Shown here piece by piece: positions 1 to 7,646 of a DNA stretch of 7,646 nt (positions are counted from its first letter, which is position 1; every line of letters starts with the position of its first letter). Below the pieces are notes generated by a model that was given only the letters and a program-made list of their open reading frames with translations, was not told the origin of the DNA and made no database searches. Source of the DNA: a virus (Duplodnaviria > Heunggongvirae > Uroviricota > Caudoviricetes); the IMG/VR virus record IMGVR_UViG_2778261463_000007, positions 1 to 7,646 of that record; one strand, written 5' to 3'. A program made the translations under genes and the position numbers.

Positions 1-43
1 ACCGGAATTGAAGTGGTGGCCTGATGGTTACAACTAAACTGTT

Positions 44-63
44 CTGCCGACTGAGGTAAGTCG
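44..63 (-). other. 7-bp perfect inverted repeat (GCCGACT / AGTCGGC) with 6-nt loop, immediately 3' of the tRNA-like element on the minus strand; function unknown
   Basis: Read directly: plus strand gccgact-gaggta-agtcggc. No U-tract follows on either strand, so not a canonical intrinsic terminator. Confidence 0.3.
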
Positions 64-67
64 GCGC

Positions 68-144
68 TGGACCGCCAGCGGGGAATCGAACCTAGCGCAC
101 TCAACTTAAAGGGTTGACGCTCTTTCCTGATGAGCTAGTAGCGG
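68..144 (-). tRNA. Atypical tRNA-like element (possible pseudo-tRNA); anticodon triplet by position is TTT, identity uncertain
   Basis: Minus-strand read CCGCTAC-TA-GCTC-ATCAGGAAA-GAGC-G-TCAAC-CCTTTAA-GTTGA-GTGCG-CTAGG-TTCGATT-CCCCG-CTGGCGG-T-CCA. Conserved U8, A14, G18G19, canonical T-loop TTCGATT, 5-bp anticodon stem and 6/7 acceptor pairs are present. Position 33 is C instead of the near-universal U, and the T-stem has two mismatches. Starts 1 nt after the CCA of the neighbouring tRNA. Confidence 0.45.
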
Positions 145-145
145 T

Positions 146-221
146 TGGTGGCCCTTGCTGAATTTGAACCAGCGCCCTTGCGATTATGAGTCGCTCGCTC
201 TCACCACTGAGCTAAAGGGCC
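146..221 (-). tRNA. tRNA with anticodon CAT, tRNA-Ile2-like (lysidine type; anticodon-based tools would label it Met); resembles E. coli ileX and the ileZ of Stx-type phages
   Basis: Reverse complement gives GGCCCTTTAGCTCAGTGGTGAGAGCGAGCGACTCATAATCGCAAGGGCGCTGGTTCAAATTCAGCAAGGGCCACCA: 7-bp acceptor stem, D-arm GCTC/GAGC, anticodon loop CTCATAA, T-arm GCTGG-TTCAAAT-TCAGC, encoded CCA. The anticodon arm CGACTCATAATCG matches my recollection of E. coli ileX rather than elongator or initiator tRNA-Met. Confidence 0.8.
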
Positions 222-353
222 TCGAGCAGCATAATAACGTTACGGGATTAATACCGCAAATCTCAGAGAAAGCCCGACAAACCCAACTAAGCGCACCTCT
301 TATCTGGTCCGCCAAAGAGCTTAATGTCCGGTGCAGATTTTCGATGTAAAAAA

Positions 354-371
354 CCGCCTGGCTGCGGGTTT
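354..371 (-). terminator. Weak candidate intrinsic terminator (4-bp GC stem CCGC/GCGG, 6-nt loop, followed by U6 on the minus-strand RNA)
   Basis: Plus strand aaaaaa-ccgc-ctggct-gcgg-gttt; on the minus strand the hairpin is followed by six T. The stem is short, so stability is marginal. Confidence 0.25.
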
Positions 372-694
372 AAGTTGTGTGGCGTAGGAACCACTCTTAC
401 CATGATATGCATACTTTTACGATCGTAAAGTGTTTGTTCATACCCTGCATGCTGCATGATTCACCCCACAGACAATCTCTGGATTGTTGCGACGTTTGGC
501 AAGATACAATTAAAGATTATGCATTCTTCTATGCACGTATTTTTCTTCAAAAGTAATGTCTTTATTAAGGTTATATAAATAACTCATAAACCCAAATAAT
601 TAAATATATTTAGCACTTCTAATAAAAAAGATTGATCTTAATTTTCTGAGTGAAAGATAGCCATCTATTTATTAGTTTGCATGACTTCTTATTT

Positions 695-710
695 TGTGAT
701 AGTGATCACA
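695..710. promoter_or_regulatory. Perfect match to both half-sites of the CRP consensus TGTGA-N6-TCACA, upstream of the porin gene
   Basis: Read directly: tgtga-tagtga-tcaca at 695-710, about 110 bp upstream of the porin ATG at 820. Confidence 0.4.
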
Positions 711-738
711 TATAAAGAATCGGACTCCTTAATTTTCC

Positions 739-767
739 TTGTATACATTATACACAGAAATTAAATT
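739..767 (+). promoter_or_regulatory. Candidate sigma70 promoter for the porin gene (-35 TTGTAT, 17-bp spacer, -10 TAAATT)
   Basis: Hexamers read by eye with canonical spacing; each is a 4/6 match to consensus. Shine-Dalgarno GAGGA at 809-813 lies 6 nt before the ATG. If the start site is near 775, the CRP site would be centred near -72.5. Confidence 0.3.
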
Positions 768-819
768 TTCATCCTGATAGCATTTTGTCGTCCAATTAAC
801 TCCCACCAGAGGATAAAAA

Positions 820-1926
820 ATGAAAAATTTAACAGTGGCACTTTCTGCTGTAGCAGCATCAGTATTTCTGGCAACGTCTTCAAATGCAGCAGAAATATAC
901 AATAAAGATGCAAACAAAGTGGATTTATACGGTAAAGCAGTTGGTTTACATTATTTTTCTTCTGATAAGGACCAAAACGGAGATCAGACTTACGCACGCC
1001 TTGGATTCAGAGGTGAAACCCAAATAAATAATTATATTACTGGTTTTGGTCAGTGGGAATATAATTTCCAGGGGAACAACCCTGAAGGGGATGGAGCTCA
1101 AACTGGAAACAAGACTCGCCTGGCATACGCTGGTCTGAAGCTTGCAGATGCTGGCTCTCTTGATTATGGTCGTAACTACGGCGTGGTGTACGACGCATTA
1201 AGCTACACTGACGTCTTCCCGGAGTTTGGACCTACCGCAGCGCAAAAGGATAACTTCTTCGTTGGTCGTGTAGGCGGTGTTGCCACATACCGCAACACTG
1301 ACTTTTTTGGACTGGTCGATGGGCTTAGCTTTGCAATTCAGTATCTGGGAAAAAATGAACGCAAGGATAAACCAGATACTTCAAACGGAGAGGGTGTAGG
1401 TGGCTCTGTCAGCTATGAATATGAAGGATTTGGTTTTGTCGCAGCATACGGCGCTGCTGATCGTACTAAAAATCAGAAAAAGGCTGAGCTTGGTAAAGGG
1501 AAAAAAGCTGAACAGTGGGCCACCGGGGTAAAATATGACGCAAATAATCTGTACCTGGCTGCCAGTTATGGTGAAACAAATAATACCCGTGCAATATCGT
1601 ATGGTGATAATATTTCAGGAGTGGCGAATAAAACCGAAGATTTCACTGTTGTGGCACAATACCAGTTCGACTTTGGATTACGCCCGTCTCTTGCTTATAC
1701 CCACTCTAAAGCAAAAAACCTTTCATCCAGTACTGATATTAGTAAAAAACATGATGACGGATATATTGAAAAATTCGTTGAAGTAGGGGCTTCTTATTAC
1801 TTCAACAAAAATATGTCTACATACATAGATTACAAAATCAATATGCTCGATAAAAATAAATTCACTGAAAGAACAGGAGTATCAACCGACGATATTGTCG
1901 CTGTTGGTCTGGTTTATCAGTTCTGA
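820..1926 (+). CDS. General porin of the OmpC/OmpF/NmpC family (prophage-borne, NmpC/Lc-like), 368 aa, with N-terminal signal peptide
   Basis: Signal peptide [23 protein letters not shown] followed by mature N-terminus [16 protein letters not shown] typical of enterobacterial porins; PEFG loop-3 motif; C-terminus [24 protein letters not shown]...[16 protein letters not shown] ending in Phe. Strong RBS. Gene is markedly more AT-rich than the flanking phage genes. Confidence 0.95.
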
Positions 1927-1971
1927 TTTATTCTGTAAGAATATGCCGGGGGAGTGAGAACTTTTCTGGCA

Positions 1972-2000
1972 TATAAAGTGGTGCCCTCATGCCACTGCAA
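1972..2000 (-). promoter_or_regulatory. Candidate late promoter (pR'-like) downstream of Q: -35 TTGCAG, 17-bp spacer, -10 TTTATA on the minus strand
   Basis: Position matches where lambdoid Q proteins act (promoter and qut site just downstream of the Q gene); hexamers read by eye only. Confidence 0.2.
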
Positions 2001-2070
2001 AACGTTGGACAGTACTTAACTTTTCCAACGAACTTTCTGTTATTTATTAACCTTTTTGGTTTTTATACTT

Positions 2071-2097
2071 GGGCGCTTTGCGCCCATTTTTTATTTT
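2071..2097 (+). terminator. Rho-independent terminator for the porin transcript (GGGCGC-TTT-GCGCCC then A-TTTTTTATTTT)
   Basis: Perfect 6-bp GC-rich stem, 3-nt loop and a T-rich tract on the plus strand. On the minus strand no U-tract follows, so it should not terminate Q-gene transcripts. Confidence 0.7.
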
Positions 2098-2104
2098 GTA
2101 CGCC

Positions 2105-2527
2105 TTATATCCCTGCCCTAGAGGACGCAGTTTTACGACGTATCGAATAATTTGTGCTCACATATCGATCCATCTCAAGGCGAACATCTAGCATCATCAA
2201 CATACCATCAACCACTCCTTCAGCTTTTTGCAAACGCTTTCCAATATGCGTATCCGAACATCCATGTTTCATTGCTAACTTCATGAACGTCATCCCATAT
2301 ACGTAGTAATCAACCAGCATGTCATGCATATCGGCGTTGTTCTTTTTCAGGCGAGCCATACAACCACATATAATCATCGCGTCATCATCGGAACACTGCG
2401 ATCGCGATTTTACTTTTGACGGTATCAGCCCCTTAAATCCGGCGGCAATGCCTGACCATTCCACGTCTTCATGATTATTTGCGACCCATGCCCCCCAACG
2501 TTCAAGAACCATTTGAATATCACGCAT
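2105..2527 (-). CDS. Q: Late-gene antitermination protein Q (QuuD-like family)
   Basis: Translation [62 protein letters not shown]... closely resembles my recollection of E. coli DLP12 QuuD. Start placed at the ATG preceded by GGAG 8 nt upstream; the ORF track extends to a TTG at 2542. Sits last before the late region, as Q does. Confidence 0.9.
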
Positions 2528-2544
2528 CAACTTTCTCCACAAAA

Positions 2545-3540
2545 TCAGGCCAGCACACCAGTTGCCAGCGCACGATCGATAAAACGAAATATCAGCTCCA
2601 GCTGGGAGCCATACTTCACTTCAAATGCCACGGTATCCGCATGCAGCTCGTCGTGATGCTTTCTGCACAAAGGCAACACAAAGAGGTCATGCGCTTTTGT
2701 ACCCATTCCCCCCTGACCGTGACCTATCAGGTGGTGGGGATCATCAGCAGGCTTTCCACAACATGCACACGGCTGTGTCTTAACCCAGCGCGTGTACTTT
2801 TCATTAACCCAGCGGCGACGTTTTGGGCGTAACATAAAAGACTCCGGCGACTCCGGATCCACTTTCAGCGCCAGCACCTTTTTCGCTTTATCCTGGATAA
2901 TGCTGGTGGCAGGAACCGAAGGAACAAGGTCACTCTCCCGGGTGACAGACGGCACAACAGGATTCGGTAATCTCAGTGCCTTACGGGCTGCACTTTCCGG
3001 TAAGGTATCCGCCAGGTCATTACGAACCAGCCACCAGCACAGTTCCGGCATTGTCACAACATGACTATCATCAAAACCGAGATCCCGACGCACGACAGAC
3101 AACACCCAGCGAGCACAGTTATCCGTTGCCATTGATTCCAGCCGTTCCGTGAACTGATCGCACAGCTGGTTATCGCAGTGCCAGCACAGACGGATTGCAC
3201 CCGGAGCGTGTCGCATTGTGGTCATGTTCTCGCTGTGCCAGTCGGAATGAGGCCACTGGCAGCCTTTTTCACGAAGTAACCAGCTTTCAAGACATTCCAC
3301 TCCACCAGCACGACGGATTACTGCCTCATTGCGGAACACGGCCCGAACGGCAGGATCATCCGCCAGCGGTTGTGATGCCGCCGGAACGGCACCGCTGGCG
3401 AAAGATGAATAACGTTCCGGCTCAGGCTCCAGCAGGACACGCCCCTGCATAAACAGGGGCATCAGCTCTGAACCTGGCCTGAACAATACGATCCCCATAC
3501 GCGGGGCAATTTCAGGGGTCAGTAGTGCTCTCACGGTCAC
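2545..3540 (-). CDS. Cys/His-rich nin-region protein, likely DUF968 family (YdfU-like), with a C-terminal HNH-nuclease-like motif
   Basis: 331-aa ORF immediately upstream of Q. C-terminal segment [43 protein letters not shown] fits an HNH-type zinc-binding pattern; a second Cys/His cluster (CQWPHSDWH...CWHCDNQLC) lies in the middle. GTG start at 3540 or the in-frame GTG at 3534, with GAGG upstream. Confidence 0.85.
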
Positions 3541-3585
3541 CTCAGCGAACGATATTGCATGAACACAGGAGAAAAAATTCAGCCA

Positions 3586-3843
3586 TCACGCAGTAAACTC
3601 CTTCACCAGAGTTTCAAACTGGCTTACCTTGCCTTCCAGTTCCGCCACGCAATCCACCAGCTCATCCACCGCCTTTTGTGTGCGGTGTTTTGCCTGCAGC
3701 AGATCACGAAGCGCCGGAGTAAGCTGCTTGCGGAGCGTATCCTTTGCCACGCTCATTTTTTCCATCTGTTCAGCACAACGAAGCATCTCCTGCGCCTGGC
3801 GACGAAGTTGTTCCGGTGAAACAGTGGCTGTTCTGTTATTCAA
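3586..3843 (-). CDS. Hypothetical 85-aa protein, predicted helical/coiled-coil, unknown function
   Basis: ORF with TTG start overlapping the DnaB-like stop (TTGA overlap) and GGAG upstream. Sequence is heptad-like and rich in charged residues and Leu. I recognise no family. Confidence 0.6.
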   Translation of the reverse strand: MNNRTATVSPEQLRRQAQEMLRCAEQMEKMSVAKDTLRKQLTPALRDLLQAKHRTQKAVDELVDCVAELEGKVSQFETLVKEFTA

Positions 3844-5240
3844 AATAAACGCTCCGCTTTACTGCCCGACATGCGGTTATTGCTGTATCTGCGCGGATTG
3901 CCCGGCGTCATGGGTGTGGAAAGAACCTGAGCGCTTTCCTGATCCACAGGCAGAAAATGCCCGTTATGAAAACGCCGGTAAATGGTCCCGAGAGTGCCAT
4001 TACGCTGTTTCGTGATGTTGATTTCTGCTATGCCTCTGGCCTGTGTATCCGGGTTATACACCTCATCCCTGTAAAGCATCAGAATGATGTCGGCATCCGC
4101 CTCTATTTCCCCGGAATTTTTCAGATCCGAGTTCATGGGGCGTTTATTGGGTCTGGATTCCACACCACGGGAGAGCTGACTCAGTGCAATCAGCGGGAAA
4201 CCGCCGGATTTTGCCAGACTTTTAAGTCCCTTTGAGATTTCCCCCACAGCAAGGTCGTGACGCCCCGTGCTGCGGGTTTTAATCAGACCGAGGTAATCAA
4301 CCACCACCAGCGCCGTTTCCGGATGCTTCATCCGGTGGTACCTCGTGGTTGCACATATCTCATCAATGGTCAGATTTGCCTGGTCCACCATCCAGATATT
4401 ACGCCCCGTCATTCGTCCCACACCCTGTGAGAAACGTGCCCAGTCTTCGTCTTCAAAACGGGCAGCAGACTTAAGACGGGATACCGGCATTCCACCGGCA
4501 GAAGACACCATACGTTCACCAATCTGGATGTTCGCCATCTCCATGGTGAACAGAAGCACGCCATGCCCCTGCTCAGTCACCTTGTCGATGATGTCCAGCG
4601 CCAGTTCGGTTTTCCCCATCGAAGGACGAGCCGCAATGAATACCAGGTCGCCTGGCTCCATACCCCCTGTTTTTGCGTCCAGTTCATCAATACCGGTCAT
4701 CAGCGTTCTGGATTTCTCCAGTCCCTGATTCCGGCATTCAACACGGCCCACCACTTCCGGAAGGACATCATCAATGTGAACCGGCTGAATGACGCCCTTT
4801 CCGGTCGACAGTGAGGCCATCATGTTCTGCGCATCCTTCAGGGCATCCTCGGCTGCTTCGCAGGTATGTGCATCCCGTAAATTCTGTAATGCTTCGGTCA
4901 GTGTTTTTTCTGCATCGCGCAGTACGGCATTTCGCCGCAGCGCTGCAACATAGTGTTCCAGTGAAGACTTCACCCAGGTTTTGCGCCCGGTGTCGGTAAT
5001 CACCGGGGCAAGTTCCGGCATCTCATTGCACAGCAGCACGGGGTCAATGACGCCGGATACGCGGGCCTGTCTGCAAATCCCCGCGTAAATATCCCGGTAC
5101 TGACGCACGAAAAATACATCCGCCGGAAGCGTGGCCAGAATATCCATCACTTCCGGATCTGCCCCACGCAGAAAAAACGCGCCAATCACCGCACCTTCCA
5201 GGTCATCGTTACGCCATGCCGGGGTGTTCTGGCTGGTCAT
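3840..5240 (-). CDS. dnaB: DnaB-family replicative DNA helicase (phage-encoded, P22 gene 12-like)
   Basis: 466 aa; Walker A ARPSMGKTELALD, Walker B-like LVVVDYLGL, DnaB motif IALSQLSRGVESRPNKRP, DnaB-like N-terminal domain. ATG overlaps the stop of the upstream gene (ATGA) and is preceded by GGAGGTG. Confidence 0.95.
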   Translation of the reverse strand: MTSQNTPAWRNDDLEGAVIGAFFLRGADPEVMDILATLPADVFFVRQYRDIYAGICRQARVSGVIDPVLLCNEMPELAPVITDTGRKTWVKSSLEHYVAALRRNAVLRDAEKTLTEALQNLRDAHTCEAAEDALKDAQNMMASLSTGKGVIQPVHIDDVLPEVVGRVECRNQGLEKSRTLMTGIDELDAKTGGMEPGDLVFIAARPSMGKTELALDIIDKVTEQGHGVLLFTMEMANIQIGERMVSSAGGMPVSRLKSAARFEDEDWARFSQGVGRMTGRNIWMVDQANLTIDEICATTRYHRMKHPETALVVVDYLGLIKTRSTGRHDLAVGEISKGLKSLAKSGGFPLIALSQLSRGVESRPNKRPMNSDLKNSGEIEADADIILMLYRDEVYNPDTQARGIAEINITKQRNGTLGTIYRRFHNGHFLPVDQESAQVLSTPMTPGNPRRYSNNRMSGSKAERLF

Positions 5241-6124
5241 GCGGCAACACCTCCGATACGAGAACGGTAGCTGGGCCAGTTAAACGACAACCAGTTGCGC
5301 CCGCCATCGGTGATCCTGTCGGCAATCCGGGGACTGATGAACGCCCACAATTCTTCCGGTGAAAGGTTGCTGATCAAGATAGTTGGCAAAATACCCTCAT
5401 ACCGGGCATTGATAATTTCCTGCAAAATGGCCATTTCAGCCGCACTGCCAAACTGAACGCCGACTTCGTCGATGATCAGCAAATCCAGTGACGCATAATG
5501 CTCAATGACGTCATCCGCTGTTTTTTCACTGTCATTCCGCCAGCAGTTTTTCACAGCACGGGTAAGGCGCATCACGTCGGTGATCTCCACACTGGCCAGA
5601 TAGTTACGGATGATGTGTTTTGCCATTGATACCGCCAGATGATTTTTCCCGGTACCGCAACTGCCGGTCATAACAAGACTGGTACCGTTCTCCAGCATAT
5701 CTGGCCAGTTCTCCGCATAGCGGCGACAGGCCGCAAGATTTCTGGCTGCGTCAGGATTAACCTCCAGATAATTATCAAACTCGCAGTCCCGAAAACGCAG
5801 AGCAATTCCGGCGTTATCAGTCAGTTCTTCCGCCTTGAGGGACGACAGCTCCATGGTCAAATCGTTGGCCTCAGCTATCAAGCAGTCAGGGCAGCATGAA
5901 ATTTTTTCTCTATCCTCGCCATTACGATCGCTCCACACCAGAATATGTGTGTGGTATTCGCCATGTTTTTCGCAACACCCGCGCCCTTCACGCATCCAGC
6001 AGGATCGATAAGGCCATGGCTTTTCGCCATTCTGAGCAAATGCAATCTCTGCCCGTAACTCATCCATCCGCGCCTGTAGTCTTGTTTGTTGTTCACGCAG
6101 GTTAAGTGTCATCATCGCTGTCAC
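5237..6124 (-). CDS. dnaC: DnaC/IstB-like AAA+ helicase loader with an unusual N-terminal Cys-rich region
   Basis: Walker A GSCGTGKNHLA and Walker B LLIIDEVG in the C-terminal ~190 aa. The ORF track start at 6124 is GTG; a more likely start is the ATG at 6115 with GAGG 8 nt upstream. N-terminal ~90 aa contains CWMREGRGCCEKHGEYHTH...SCCPDC. Confidence 0.9.
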   Translation of the reverse strand: MTAMMTLNLREQQTRLQARMDELRAEIAFAQNGEKPWPYRSCWMREGRGCCEKHGEYHTHILVWSDRNGEDREKISCCPDCLIAEANDLTMELSSLKAEELTDNAGIALRFRDCEFDNYLEVNPDAARNLAACRRYAENWPDMLENGTSLVMTGSCGTGKNHLAVSMAKHIIRNYLASVEITDVMRLTRAVKNCWRNDSEKTADDVIEHYASLDLLIIDEVGVQFGSAAEMAILQEIINARYEGILPTILISNLSPEELWAFISPRIADRITDGGRNWLSFNWPSYRSRIGGVAA

Positions 6125-6125
6125 C

Positions 6126-7118
6126 TCAGAATGTCAATTTGTCACTGGATTTACCGAATTTGTCAGACATGGCTCCCAGGCCAGCCAGGACATCGACCTG
6201 TCGCTGTCGCCCACCTCCGGGAGCGGCTGGCTGTTGCCAGGATTCGTCAAAGTGCCGATCGGGGCCAAAGAACGTCGACGCCTGCTTCACGAACTGTGTG
6301 CCGGTATTTCCTGTAGCACGTACCCAGGCGGCATAACGTCTCACACCATCAAGCATGGTCTCCGGTTTTATTCCCTCCCTGAGACGGGCTTTCCAGGCTT
6401 TGAAGGCTGCTGACTTGGAATTGCCACCAGCACGTTTGGGATATTCCTGCCAGACCTGTTCAAATTCCGGTGAATATTCCTGTCGGGCGGAACGCGCTGG
6501 TGCAGACGCGTCAGCGGATGCGCCAATAGTGTTTTTAGTCTCCGTTGTAATCTCTGTAGTAATCTCTGTATTTGTATCAACATTCGGCGTATCCCCTGTT
6601 CCGTTATGACGTTGGGGGGTGTTCCGTTTTAACGTAATAGCTGTGTCGCTGATTGCGTTATTGCTGTTACTTTCTGGCGAAACAGAAGAAGGTGTGGTAA
6701 TGGCAGCAACTGCCTGTGGGTTGATCCCGACAAACAAAATATTGCTGCATTTCACACCATCGAGCATTTCTACGGTGCGTAAATCCAGAGTAATAAACCC
6801 TGCATCGCGAAGACGCTTCAGCGCATCTGCGGTTTCCCTTTTCCCGAAGCCAAATTGCTCAGCAAACGCCTGATAGCTTCTTTGCAGTTTGTCACCCTGA
6901 AAACGCTTGCGATATCCCAGCAAAGCCCCGGTATGCTCATCCCGGAGTTCTGTCGGGCGGTACCAGTAAACAATTTCTGAAAGCAAGGCGATAGCAGTCG
7001 CATCCGGACGACCACTGGGTAGCCGAATATGTTTCCACCAGTTCGCGGGGGTGACATTGCCGGAAATATTAATTTGACCAATAGCCATAACTTCCGGTGT
7101 AGGTGCGTAACGACTCAC
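6126..7118 (-). CDS. O: Replication initiator, lambda O-like (replisome organiser)
   Basis: 330 aa; N-terminal domain resembles initiator/replisome-organiser proteins of lambdoid phages; low-complexity linker with TEITTEITTE repeats; conserved-looking C-terminal domain. GTG start preceded by GGGAGGTG, overlapping the upstream stop. Position immediately before the helicase loader and helicase. Confidence 0.9.
   Translation of the reverse strand: MSRYAPTPEVMAIGQINISGNVTPANWWKHIRLPSGRPDATAIALLSEIVYWYRPTELRDEHTGALLGYRKRFQGDKLQRSYQAFAEQFGFGKRETADALKRLRDAGFITLDLRTVEMLDGVKCSNILFVGINPQAVAAITTPSSVSPESNSNNAISDTAITLKRNTPQRHNGTGDTPNVDTNTEITTEITTETKNTIGASADASAPARSARQEYSPEFEQVWQEYPKRAGGNSKSAAFKAWKARLREGIKPETMLDGVRRYAAWVRATGNTGTQFVKQASTFFGPDRHFDESWQQPAAPGGGRQRQVDVLAGLGAMSDKFGKSSDKLTF
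6541..6660. repeat. Direct repeats inside the O-like gene: candidate iteron-type replication origin
   Basis: Tandem GTAATCTCTGTA x2 at 6547-6570; TGTTCCGTTATGACG at 6597-6611 and TGTTCCGTTTTAACG at 6620-6634 (13/15 identical, 23 bp apart); further TTGCGTTA/TTGCTGTTA-like repeats to about 6680. Confidence 0.45.
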
Positions 7119-7339
7119 ACGGCACCTCCCAGGCGTTTAAACATTTTTCCGGACTGAAACACTGCCAGTGGATAACTCAGGGTATGAGTACGTCCCTGAA
7201 CCTGGCAGACAACCTTCTGGCTTTCTGTATTGACCAGGCAAACCCGCAGAACGTGGCCGTTGCTGGTGGTGAACCACTGCCCCACACGGGGGCAATGGTT
7301 GTATCGGTGATACCGGAAATTAACGATGTGGCGGATCAT
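7115..7339 (-). CDS. Hypothetical 74-aa protein with three Cys, immediately upstream of the O-like gene
   Basis: ATG preceded by strong GGAGGTG at correct spacing; stop overlaps the GTG start of the O-like gene. I recognise no family. Confidence 0.6.
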   Translation of the reverse strand: MIRHIVNFRYHRYNHCPRVGQWFTTSNGHVLRVCLVNTESQKVVCQVQGRTHTLSYPLAVFQSGKMFKRLGGAV

Positions 7340-7527
7340 GGACGCACCTCCGCCGTAGTTACGTATTTAACCGGGCTACCTTTCATTGAGATGGTTTCAC
7401 ACATCTCTGCCGCTTTCAGTTCTGCCGTTTTTCTGGATTTATAGCGACGGTGCCAGACAGATACATCCGTGCTAACTGATACATCGTTCTGAGAGATCCC
7501 CTCATAATTTCCCCAAAGCGTAACCAT
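7336..7527 (-). CDS. Hypothetical 63-aa protein (uncertain gene call)
   Basis: ORF whose stop overlaps the start of the 74-aa gene (ATGA), but no convincing Shine-Dalgarno precedes its ATG, and an alternative frame is open to the window edge. Confidence 0.35.
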   Translation of the reverse strand: MVTLWGNYEGISQNDVSVSTDVSVWHRRYKSRKTAELKAAEMCETISMKGSPVKYVTTAEVRP

Positions 7528-7646
7528 GTGTGAATAAATTTTGAGCTAGTAGGGTTGCAGCCACGAGTAAGTCTTCCCTTGTTATTGTGTAGCCAGAATG
7601 CCGCAAAACTTCCATGCCTAAGCGAACTGTTGAGAGTACGTTTCGA

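Follow-up and report, generated by a model that had tools for sequence, protein, structure and literature searches.

What does a porin gene do inside a lambdoid prophage when it lies on the strand opposite to the phage genes, and to which transcription unit does it belong? The question is raised by the virus record IMGVR_UViG_2778261463_000007, whose positions 1 to 7,646 form the stretch of DNA analysed here (the window, 7,646 nucleotides in full). The window is part of a lambdoid Escherichia coli prophage whose phage genes run from right to left on the minus strand, and a porin gene lies on its plus strand, next to the gene of the antiterminator Q. With moderate confidence, the porin gene and its regulatory flanks can be regarded as a lysogenic-conversion cassette of the Lc/NmpC type, by which a catabolite-controlled phage porin would replace porins of the host. 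Gene integrity, base composition, position, part-by-part homology, mosaic ancestry, purifying selection and a conserved RNA structure are shown directly.

A complete porin gene in a prophage cassette

The cassette and its gene are laid out as follows:

about 436-2104, porin cassette, between Q and the late promoter PR'
436-819, plus strand, upstream region of 384 bp with about 31% GC
820-1926, plus strand, porin gene of 368 codons with an ATG start
820-888, plus strand, codons 1-23, signal peptide, followed by a mature porin of 345 residues

The open reading frame (ORF) at 820-1926 matches the Pfam family Porin_1 (PF00267) over the full length of the model (positions 1-337 of 337, E 1.8e-125, 419 bits against a cut-off of 23.7), so the feature that a sequence-only reading of this DNA had placed at 350-2100 is real, far beyond chance. 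The product has the traits of the family, namely a cleavable signal peptide (predicted from sequence), the PEFGP motif in loop L3 and a C-terminal aromatic F, within a terminal YQF; the junction of its signal peptide, SNA/AEIYNK, has counterparts of the form A-x-A/AEIYNK in OmpF, OmpC and Lc. As that reading had proposed, a complete porin with a signal peptide occupies the interval between Q and the transfer RNA (tRNA) genes, on the plus strand where Q and the tRNAs are on the minus strand, and it does so in the slot and orientation of nmpC in DLP12 and lc in PA-2, with flanks that are homologous to both. The same slot and opposite-strand orientation are found in mEp332, Perceval, the PhiR phages and 434, and the succession of a QuuD-type Q, an opposite-strand porin, PR' and lysis genes is shared with DLP12, PA-2, mEp332, Perceval and PhiR30_1. 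Specifically, homology to lc and nmpC extends over the signal peptide, the C-terminus with loop L8, the 3' untranslated region (3'UTR) with its terminator, and the PR' module.

The block at 350-2100 has a GC content of 0.389, with 0.332 in its upstream part (350-819) and 0.416 in the porin coding sequence (0.336 at third codon positions, GC3), against 0.521 in the phage backbone at 2105-7646 (GC3 0.45-0.59 in phage genes). The block is more AT-rich than the backbone, as had been claimed, rather than equal to it in composition, and in this it resembles lc, nmpC and their counterparts in related phages. Along the porin gene composition is uneven: GC is 0.34-0.41 over codons 1-100 and 0.53-0.55 over codons 85-158, and it lies at 0.28-0.36 over the final 65 codons. 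Moreover, the window backbone is 94.5% identical to Shiga toxin 2 (Stx2) phages integrated at yecE, which carry no porin and a different Q; in these phages and in PhiR49_2, the cassette is absent and PR' follows directly after Q. By its presence or absence among related phages, its GC content of 0.39 versus 0.52 and its own terminator, the porin cassette is a moron.

Megablast finds no match to 350-2100 in 50,697 phage records, while 5 of the 5426 complete E. coli genomes contain the block, four of them at 99.3% identity or more and the fifth, GF60, at 86.5%, and in all five the porin lies in a lambdoid prophage beside Q. The recorded sources (four of the five) are chicken or chicken meat from Switzerland (twice), Russia and China, and the source of the Japanese genome is unrecorded. 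The exact porin protein is indexed in 895 blocks of an assembly collection, and the RefSeq annotation of the lineage is simply 'porin'.

Placement outside the late operon

The elements that decide the transcriptional placement of the cassette are:

2105-2527 (ATG, 140 residues) or 2105-2542 (TTG, 145 residues), minus strand, antiterminator Q, QuuD type, PF06530
345-429, minus strand, PR'-like module, with the -35 element TTTACG at 429-424, a 16-nt spacer and the -10 element TATCAT at 407-402
about 372-345, minus strand, tR'-like hairpin and T-run
146-221, minus strand, tRNA(CAU)
68-144, minus strand, tRNA(UUU)

The porin had been described as antisense to the late transcription unit, a description that has to be corrected, because PR' and its hairpin lie at 429-345 on the minus strand and the porin is upstream of the late unit. 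A promoter scan of the minus strand finds no site between Q and the porin stop codon and, in the upstream flank, only that at 429-402; the other promoter-like match on this strand, at 1059-1031, is inside the porin ORF. Hundreds of Stx phages and other lambdoid phages conserve the 90-bp segment at 348-439, which in them lies at or just past the end of Q, and identical hexamers are annotated as 'putative late promoter PR'' in the Shigella phage Ss-VASD. In the alignment, the promoter, the initially transcribed stretch and the hairpin with its T-run are common to the window, GF60, Ss-VASD, the Stx2 yecE phage, mEp332, DLP12 and PA-2, and the PR' module of porin-bearing phages lies between the porin upstream region and the holin or tRNA genes. 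With PR' on the far side of the porin, the insertion point of the cassette falls between Q and PR', outside the late operon. The gene diverges from PR' and converges with Q, and from this arrangement it would be antisense only to early transcription that reads past Q. The position between Q and PR' further implies that the porin does not belong to the late genes and would not be induced along with the lysis genes, as stx is.

In TUM1886, homology to the window starts exactly at 348, a boundary that points to a mobile unit made up of tR'/PR', the porin cassette and Q. Comparison of the sequences suggests that Q and the porin move as a pair: Q shares 80% identity with QuuD of DLP12 and 48% with the Q of the Stx2 yecE phages, with a backbone identity of 94.5% to the latter, and a PF06530 Q of 140-141 residues lies beside the porin in all eight places shown (of 24 contigs read), which between them represent at least three distinct types of replication module and two of lysis region. 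The start of Q is probably the ATG at 2527, as in RefSeq copies, rather than the TTG at 2542 given by the ORF finder. Compared with DLP12 QuuD, the protein extends about 14 residues further at its C-terminus, and 9 bp separate the stop codon of Q from the end of the T-run of the porin terminator.

From PR', the hairpin and T-run are reached within about 50 nt, and a short constitutive RNA is predicted to arise in the lysogen. In Stx phages, the by-product of PR'-tR' is the regulatory small RNA (sRNA) StxS, which derives from a 258-nt transcript in Sakai phages (PMC7547250). The label of StxS homologue was not adopted for the short PR' RNA, and only the resemblance of the promoter modules is noted.

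An OmpF-like barrel with re-modelled loops

The assignment of the porin to the OmpC/NmpC family holds for the signal peptide and the C-terminus alone, as the mature barrel is nearest to OmpF. The NCBIfam models score 540.4 bits for OmpF (cut-off 583), 461 for OmpC (cut-off 484) and 418 for PhoE (cut-off 599), and the OmpF equivalog NF007446 is the best-scoring model, yet the porin stays below its cut-off; a sequence search of the PDB gives 505 bits for OmpF, about 400 for OmpC and 366 for PhoE. The mature barrel is about 72-74% identical to E. coli OmpF, with which it groups, and about 60-63% identical to Lc and NmpC, of which it is not an ortholog, and the 42 porins of the phage collection (Lc, NmpC and 'OmpD' types) are 55-60% identical to it by tblastn. 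An AlphaFold model (AF2; predicted local distance difference test, pLDDT, of 70) forms a 16-strand barrel whose best structural match is OmpF, with a template-modelling (TM) score of 0.92, and OmpF (2OMF/1OPF) is both the closest solved structure and the closest chromosomal homologue. The window porin departs from OmpF in signal peptide, 5'UTR and promoter, and its gene lies in the Q-PR' slot of a prophage instead of between aspC and asnS, as in aspC-ompF-asnS.

With the loop limits that we take to be those of the OmpF structure, and that are consistent with the strands of the AF2 model, identity to OmpF is 83% at non-loop positions and 57% in loops, and nearly all insertions and deletions fall in loops. 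Divergent loops had been suspected from the sequence alone, and an alignment to known porins with the divergence mapped onto it bears this out, with the differences concentrated in the exposed loops. Specifically, L1 is 5 residues shorter than that of OmpF, as in OmpC and Lc; L7 (residues 295-318) is unique, with an insertion of 7 residues relative to OmpF that is common only to the window and GF60 alleles; and L8 is of the Lc/OmpC type and 3 residues longer than that of OmpF. Compared with Lc and NmpC, the window porin again has 7 more residues in L7, and its L5 lacks the insertion of Lc. The pore residues are conserved, both in the basic ladder (K16, R42, R82, R132) and in the acidic positions of L3 (D113, E117), while L3 reads PEFGPTA in place of the OmpF sequence PEFGGDT (G120P, D121T) and L4 is changed at the pore mouth (R167D, R168T). 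On these comparisons, the product is best read as a general-diffusion porin with an OmpF-like channel and re-modelled surface loops.

Mosaic ancestry and selection

Sequence identities and closest-group distances, the latter bootstrapped with 500 resamples, assign the parts of the porin to different groups:

signal peptide, like that of Lc/NmpC (MKKLTVAISAVAASVLMAMSAQA) and unlike that of OmpF, DNA 83% identical to lc over codons 1-30, with 0.26 synonymous substitutions per site (dS)
residues 24-290, OmpF group closest in 100% of the 500 resamples
residues about 331-368, including L8, NmpC/Lc closest in 86% of resamples

In the non-loop mature part, the nonsynonymous substitutions per site (dN) amount to 0.11 to OmpF versus 0.23 to Lc, and dS to ompF is saturated. 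By its sequence, the porin gene is an old mosaic, and its OmpF-like core is old as well. According to one alternative, the porin would be a recent recombination product, or an assembly artefact, of a prophage nmpC and the host ompF; hybrids of this kind do exist (P0008 and P0046, described below), but such an origin is hardly credible here. In all 5426 complete E. coli genomes, ompF is the best match outside the family and is 70.5% identical in DNA, with the saturated dS just mentioned; among species-representative genomes, the best match to the OmpF-like core reaches 66-67% (E. coli, E. albertii), and in a set of 5.8 billion proteins the next best after the two alleles reaches 66-69%. No donor of this core closer than about 67-70% was found in these three sets, which rejects recent recombination with the host, and the copies with at least 99.3% identity come from four independent complete genomes and four countries. 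Near-identity to a host porin, which the sequence-only reading had held to indicate a recombination artefact, is thereby refuted, chromosomal porins being only about 70-74% identical in protein.

The allele of GF60 has a different mosaic. Its block, 86.5% identical overall, is 80.5% identical in the coding region and 97.4% in the upstream region; residues 24-110 are Lc-like (96% of resamples), residues 111-270 are OmpF-like (100%), and codons 150-240 are 83-87% identical in DNA to ompF of K-12. At a dS of about 0.7-1.0, the window and GF60 alleles give dN/dS ratios of 0.13 for the barrel and 0.25 for the exposed loops, and such ratios between intact alleles indicate that the porin gene is under purifying selection. 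Among alleles that are more than 99% identical, amino-acid differences are few, and all of them fall in L1, L3 or L4.

Several further porins touch on the history of the lineage. P0012 (246 residues) is a truncated third allele with a GF60-like L3 (PEFGPGSVNGD), but it shares 100% identity with the window porin over residues 271-368, a pattern which indicates that alleles of the lineage have recombined with one another on further occasions. P0003 (383 residues; L012 6001-7152) forms a clade with the window and GF60 porins, at a bootstrap value of 100% over residues 24-290, and its signal peptide resembles theirs; its gene is found away from any Q-lysis context, with SlipAM-like, TbpB-like and PAPS-reductase/DUF3440 genes as neighbours. 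P0008 and P0046 (L109 3501-4574, L111 3501-4577) are natural NmpC::OmpF hybrids, 100% identical to Lc/NmpC up to about residue 120 or 170 and 100% identical to OmpF from there on, and they lie on long contigs at the junction of prophage lysis genes and aspC, the neighbour of ompF. At L109, holin, lysozyme, Rz1 and Bor genes flank the hybrid porin on one side and aspC-ycbL on the other, a context that suggests a chromosomal rearrangement through recombination between prophage porin and ompF. P0004-P0007 and P0017 combine OmpF/OmpC or NmpC/OmpC ends, and some of them may be assembly chimeras.

Upstream region and CRP site

Within the upstream region, the following elements were located:

695-710, perfect CRP consensus TGTGA-N6-TCACA, TGTGATAGTGATCACA, centred 117.5 nt before the ATG
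730-735, weak candidate -10 element TAATTT, with CRP at about -40
762-767, weak candidate -10 element TAAATT, with TTGTAT at 739-744 and CRP at -71.5

The upstream region has no detectable similarity to those of ompF, ompC, phoE, lc, DLP12 nmpC and P7 nmpC, so that an origin of the promoter from either parent cannot be argued, and its roughly 380 bp are unrelated to the corresponding region of lc and nmpC, unlike the parts of the cassette that are homologous to these genes. Synthesis of Lc ('protein 2') is reportedly catabolite-repressed. By base composition, a perfect CRP consensus is expected about 0.007 times in the window, and no second CRP site occurs in it, even with one mismatch allowed. 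In GF60, the site has two substitutions in the spacer and both half-sites intact. The distance to the ATG is also lc-like, since the GenBank record of PA-2 annotates a CRP site of lc that is centred 119 nt before the ATG.

A structured 3'UTR of the IpeX type

The region downstream of the porin holds three elements:

1927-2096, plus strand, structured 3'UTR, with two hairpins (1941-1974, 1976-1997), a weaker third (about 2001-2024) and then the terminator
2031-2052, plus strand, conserved unpaired block AACTTTCTGTTATTTATTAACC, nearly invariant across lineages
2070-2096, plus strand, intrinsic terminator, TGGGCGC-TTT-GCGCCCA (2070-2086) and then TTTTTTATTT, with no T-run on the minus strand

The 178 bp from the porin stop codon to that of Q align with the nmpC-quuD intergenic region of DLP12 (the IpeX region), and the 3'UTR also aligns with the porin 3'UTRs of PA-2, mEp332, Perceval, PhiR30_1 and the P1-like phages P7 and phi456. 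In the predicted consensus structure, 92.8% of cells are paired versus 43-47% in slid controls, compensatory changes occur in 9 of the 33 pairs, and the covariation score is reached by none of 500 shuffles. With the IpeX region of DLP12 and PA-2, the window shares the covarying hairpins, the invariant CCCTCA loop, the terminator and the block ...TTCTGTTAT.TATTA.CC; it differs in that the 3'UTR is about 65% identical, the stems are rebuilt with other pairs and the block holds one more A. The phage-borne NmpC of P7 and phi456 has a related 3'UTR structure and the conserved block, but it belongs to a different phage type, occupies the slot odaA/hxr-ssb and is 55% identical in protein. A scan of the whole window with Rfam returns the two tRNAs only, and the 3'UTR and the PR' RNA are unmatched.

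The conserved block contains a sequence like the seed of MicF (MicF: AACTTTATTTATTACC), and its predicted duplexes with porin mRNAs compare as follows:

window block with the ompF start region, -20.4 kcal/mol, p about 0.002, target -20..+12
window block with the ompC start region, -19.6 kcal/mol, p about 0.01, target -15..+9
MicF with ompF (positive control), -27.4 kcal/mol

The duplex test was limited to the conserved block, because the whole UTR against 90-nt targets gave uninformative giant duplexes. The window block shows no pairing above shuffles with phoE, with its own start region or with lc (p > 0.2); the blocks of DLP12 and P7 pair in the same way as that of the window, and that of GF60 more weakly (p about 0.04 for ompF and about 0.02 for ompC). 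Conversely, no significant pairing of MicF with the start region of the porin is predicted (E -11.3, p about 0.12, not above shuffles), unlike for ompF. The literature on IpeX concerns DLP12 and PA-2; reviews describe the 167-nt IpeX RNA of DLP12 as one that is made from the phage porin promoter within the porin transcript, is processed, and represses OmpC and OmpF (PMC12197685, PMC5069750, PMC8065619, PMC3617542).

Taken tentatively, as a prospect that falls somewhat short of even, the cassette may be a self-contained porin-swap device, in which the MicF-like seed would silence OmpF and OmpC, the porin that escapes it would provide OmpF-type permeability controlled by CRP, together with resistance to phages and colicins, and the barrel would be renewed by recombination with ompF, as in the NmpC::OmpF hybrids.

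Points against the cassette reading and alternative explanations

Several observations weigh against the lysogenic-conversion reading, and they concern the action of the 3'UTR, the expression of the porin and its necessity. As to the 3'UTR, the pairing is a thermodynamic prediction on isolated pieces of 34 nt and 51 nt, and the window block carries one extra A relative to the perfect anti-ompF match of GF60 and P7. Moreover, the action of IpeX is described as not reliant on complementarity alone (PMC12197685) and as taking place without base pairing (PMC3617542). This disagreement among reviews would suit an alternative in which the porin is an accessory nutrient or permeability channel and the 3'UTR only a terminator region, with neither silencing of host porins nor a role in exclusion; the OmpF-like constriction residues and the CRP site, which suggests induction under carbon scarcity, agree with it too. 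We regard this alternative as unlikely, because the 3'UTR has compensatory changes in three diverged cassette lineages that include P1-like phages, an invariant block complementary to the ompF and ompC starts exceeds the needs of a terminator, and divergence is concentrated in the exposed loops (57% versus 83% identity).

With regard to expression, the cassette had been credited with a promoter and a terminator of its own: the terminator at 2070-2096 is confirmed, while in place of a promoter there is an AT-rich region with a CRP site, and no consensus sigma-70 promoter upstream of the porin on the plus strand reaches the threshold of the scan. H-NS, for example, may silence the AT-rich region, and the rare codons of the porin gene (4 ATA and 2 AGA, with zero in ompF, ompC and lc) argue against very high expression. 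Furthermore, two near-identical copies carry a mutation in the gene or near it. In LH50-c (L001 15471-16577), a 99.9% identical prophage, codon 25 of the porin has changed from GAA to TAA at the second mature residue and the gene is a pseudogene; in ECCNB12-2 (L097), the IS5-family insertion sequence (IS) ISKpn26 is inserted upstream of the CRP site, at 672-675 with a TTAG target and at a distance of 20 bp from the site. Insertions of IS5 are able to silence nearby promoters or to activate them. The nonsense allele and the upstream insertion together imply that the porin is dispensable, and nmpC is broken by IS5 in K-12 and in phage 434. On these grounds, the cassette could be a silent or decaying passenger that is kept only by the Q-PR' recombination module and is becoming a pseudogene, as nmpC::IS5 has in K-12; such a fate appears quite improbable, since dN/dS is 0.13-0.25 at a dS of about 0.7-1.0 between two intact alleles, the signal peptide, the C-terminal Phe and the residues that line the pore are intact, the identical protein recurs across the 895 assembly-collection blocks, and both CRP half-sites are kept despite the change of the spacer.

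Neighbouring genes and tRNAs

To the right of Q, the window holds the following genes, all on the minus strand:

7118-6126, O-like protein
6124-5237, DnaC-like loader
5240-3840, DnaB helicase
between the DnaB helicase and the DUF968/HNH genes, a small ORF
3540-2545, DUF968/HNH protein

The two tRNA genes, which lie downstream of PR', are the context of the cassette and not parts of it. The tRNA(CAU) is called Met by ARAGORN and tRNA-Ile (the AUA-reading Ile2 type) by PGAP in identical prophages. The tRNA(UUU), labelled 'tRNA-Lys', is a diverged copy of the tRNA-Arg(UCU) of Stx phages; 12 differences, including the change of the anticodon from UCU to UUU, separate it from the tRNA-Arg in the corresponding place of ECCNB12-2, its T-stem contains non-canonical pairs, and its Rfam score is marginal (31 bits against a threshold of 29). 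It may be an anticodon-shifted or a decaying tRNA. A link between the phage tRNAs and the codon usage of the neighbouring porin moron, with its 4 ATA and 2 AGA codons, is possible.

Proposed mechanism and biological meaning

From the features described above we infer lysogen expression, CRP control, sRNA activity and a phenotype, which under the lysogenic-conversion reading would be connected as follows. In the lysogen, the cassette would be transcribed independently, in the direction that leads away from PR'; its promoter, dependent on cAMP-CRP, would lie in the AT-rich region, and its transcript would stop at its own terminator beside the end of Q. The mRNA would yield a general-diffusion porin with an OmpF-like barrel and constriction, and with the export signal, C-terminus and L8 of the Lc/NmpC type, whose exposed loops L1 and L4-L8 would differ from those of OmpF and of Lc/NmpC. 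The IpeX-type block of the 3'UTR would pair with the host ompF and ompC mRNAs where ribosomes bind and spare the mRNA of the cassette itself. As a net effect, OmpF and OmpC of the host would be replaced in part by a phage porin that resembles them in permeability but not in its surface, the use of porins as receptors by porin-dependent phages and colicins would be altered, and the supply of porin would come under catabolite control instead of control by OmpR and MicF.

Porins that prophages carry in the Q-PR' slot, followed by a 3'UTR of the IpeX type, are already known; what appears to be new, as judged from its sequence, is a porin lineage that combines an OmpF-like barrel with a distinctive L7 and has an unrelated promoter region, a lineage that is absent from the phage collection. 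Most valuable are the correction of the transcriptional placement, the ancestry traced segment by segment and the testable idea that the 3'UTR block acts on the ompF and ompC starts, and the placement between Q and PR' matters for annotation. Prophage porins of the Lc/NmpC type are an old and little-studied example of lysogenic conversion, and the present cassette is modular, in that its parts (promoter, export signal, barrel, loops, regulatory 3'UTR) differ in their history and an OmpF-like channel is among the possible combinations. If the porin is expressed, lysogens would gain an OmpF-type pore outside the regulation by OmpR and MicF, and this pore would bear on antibiotic uptake, bile sensitivity and the susceptibility to porin-dependent phages and colicins.

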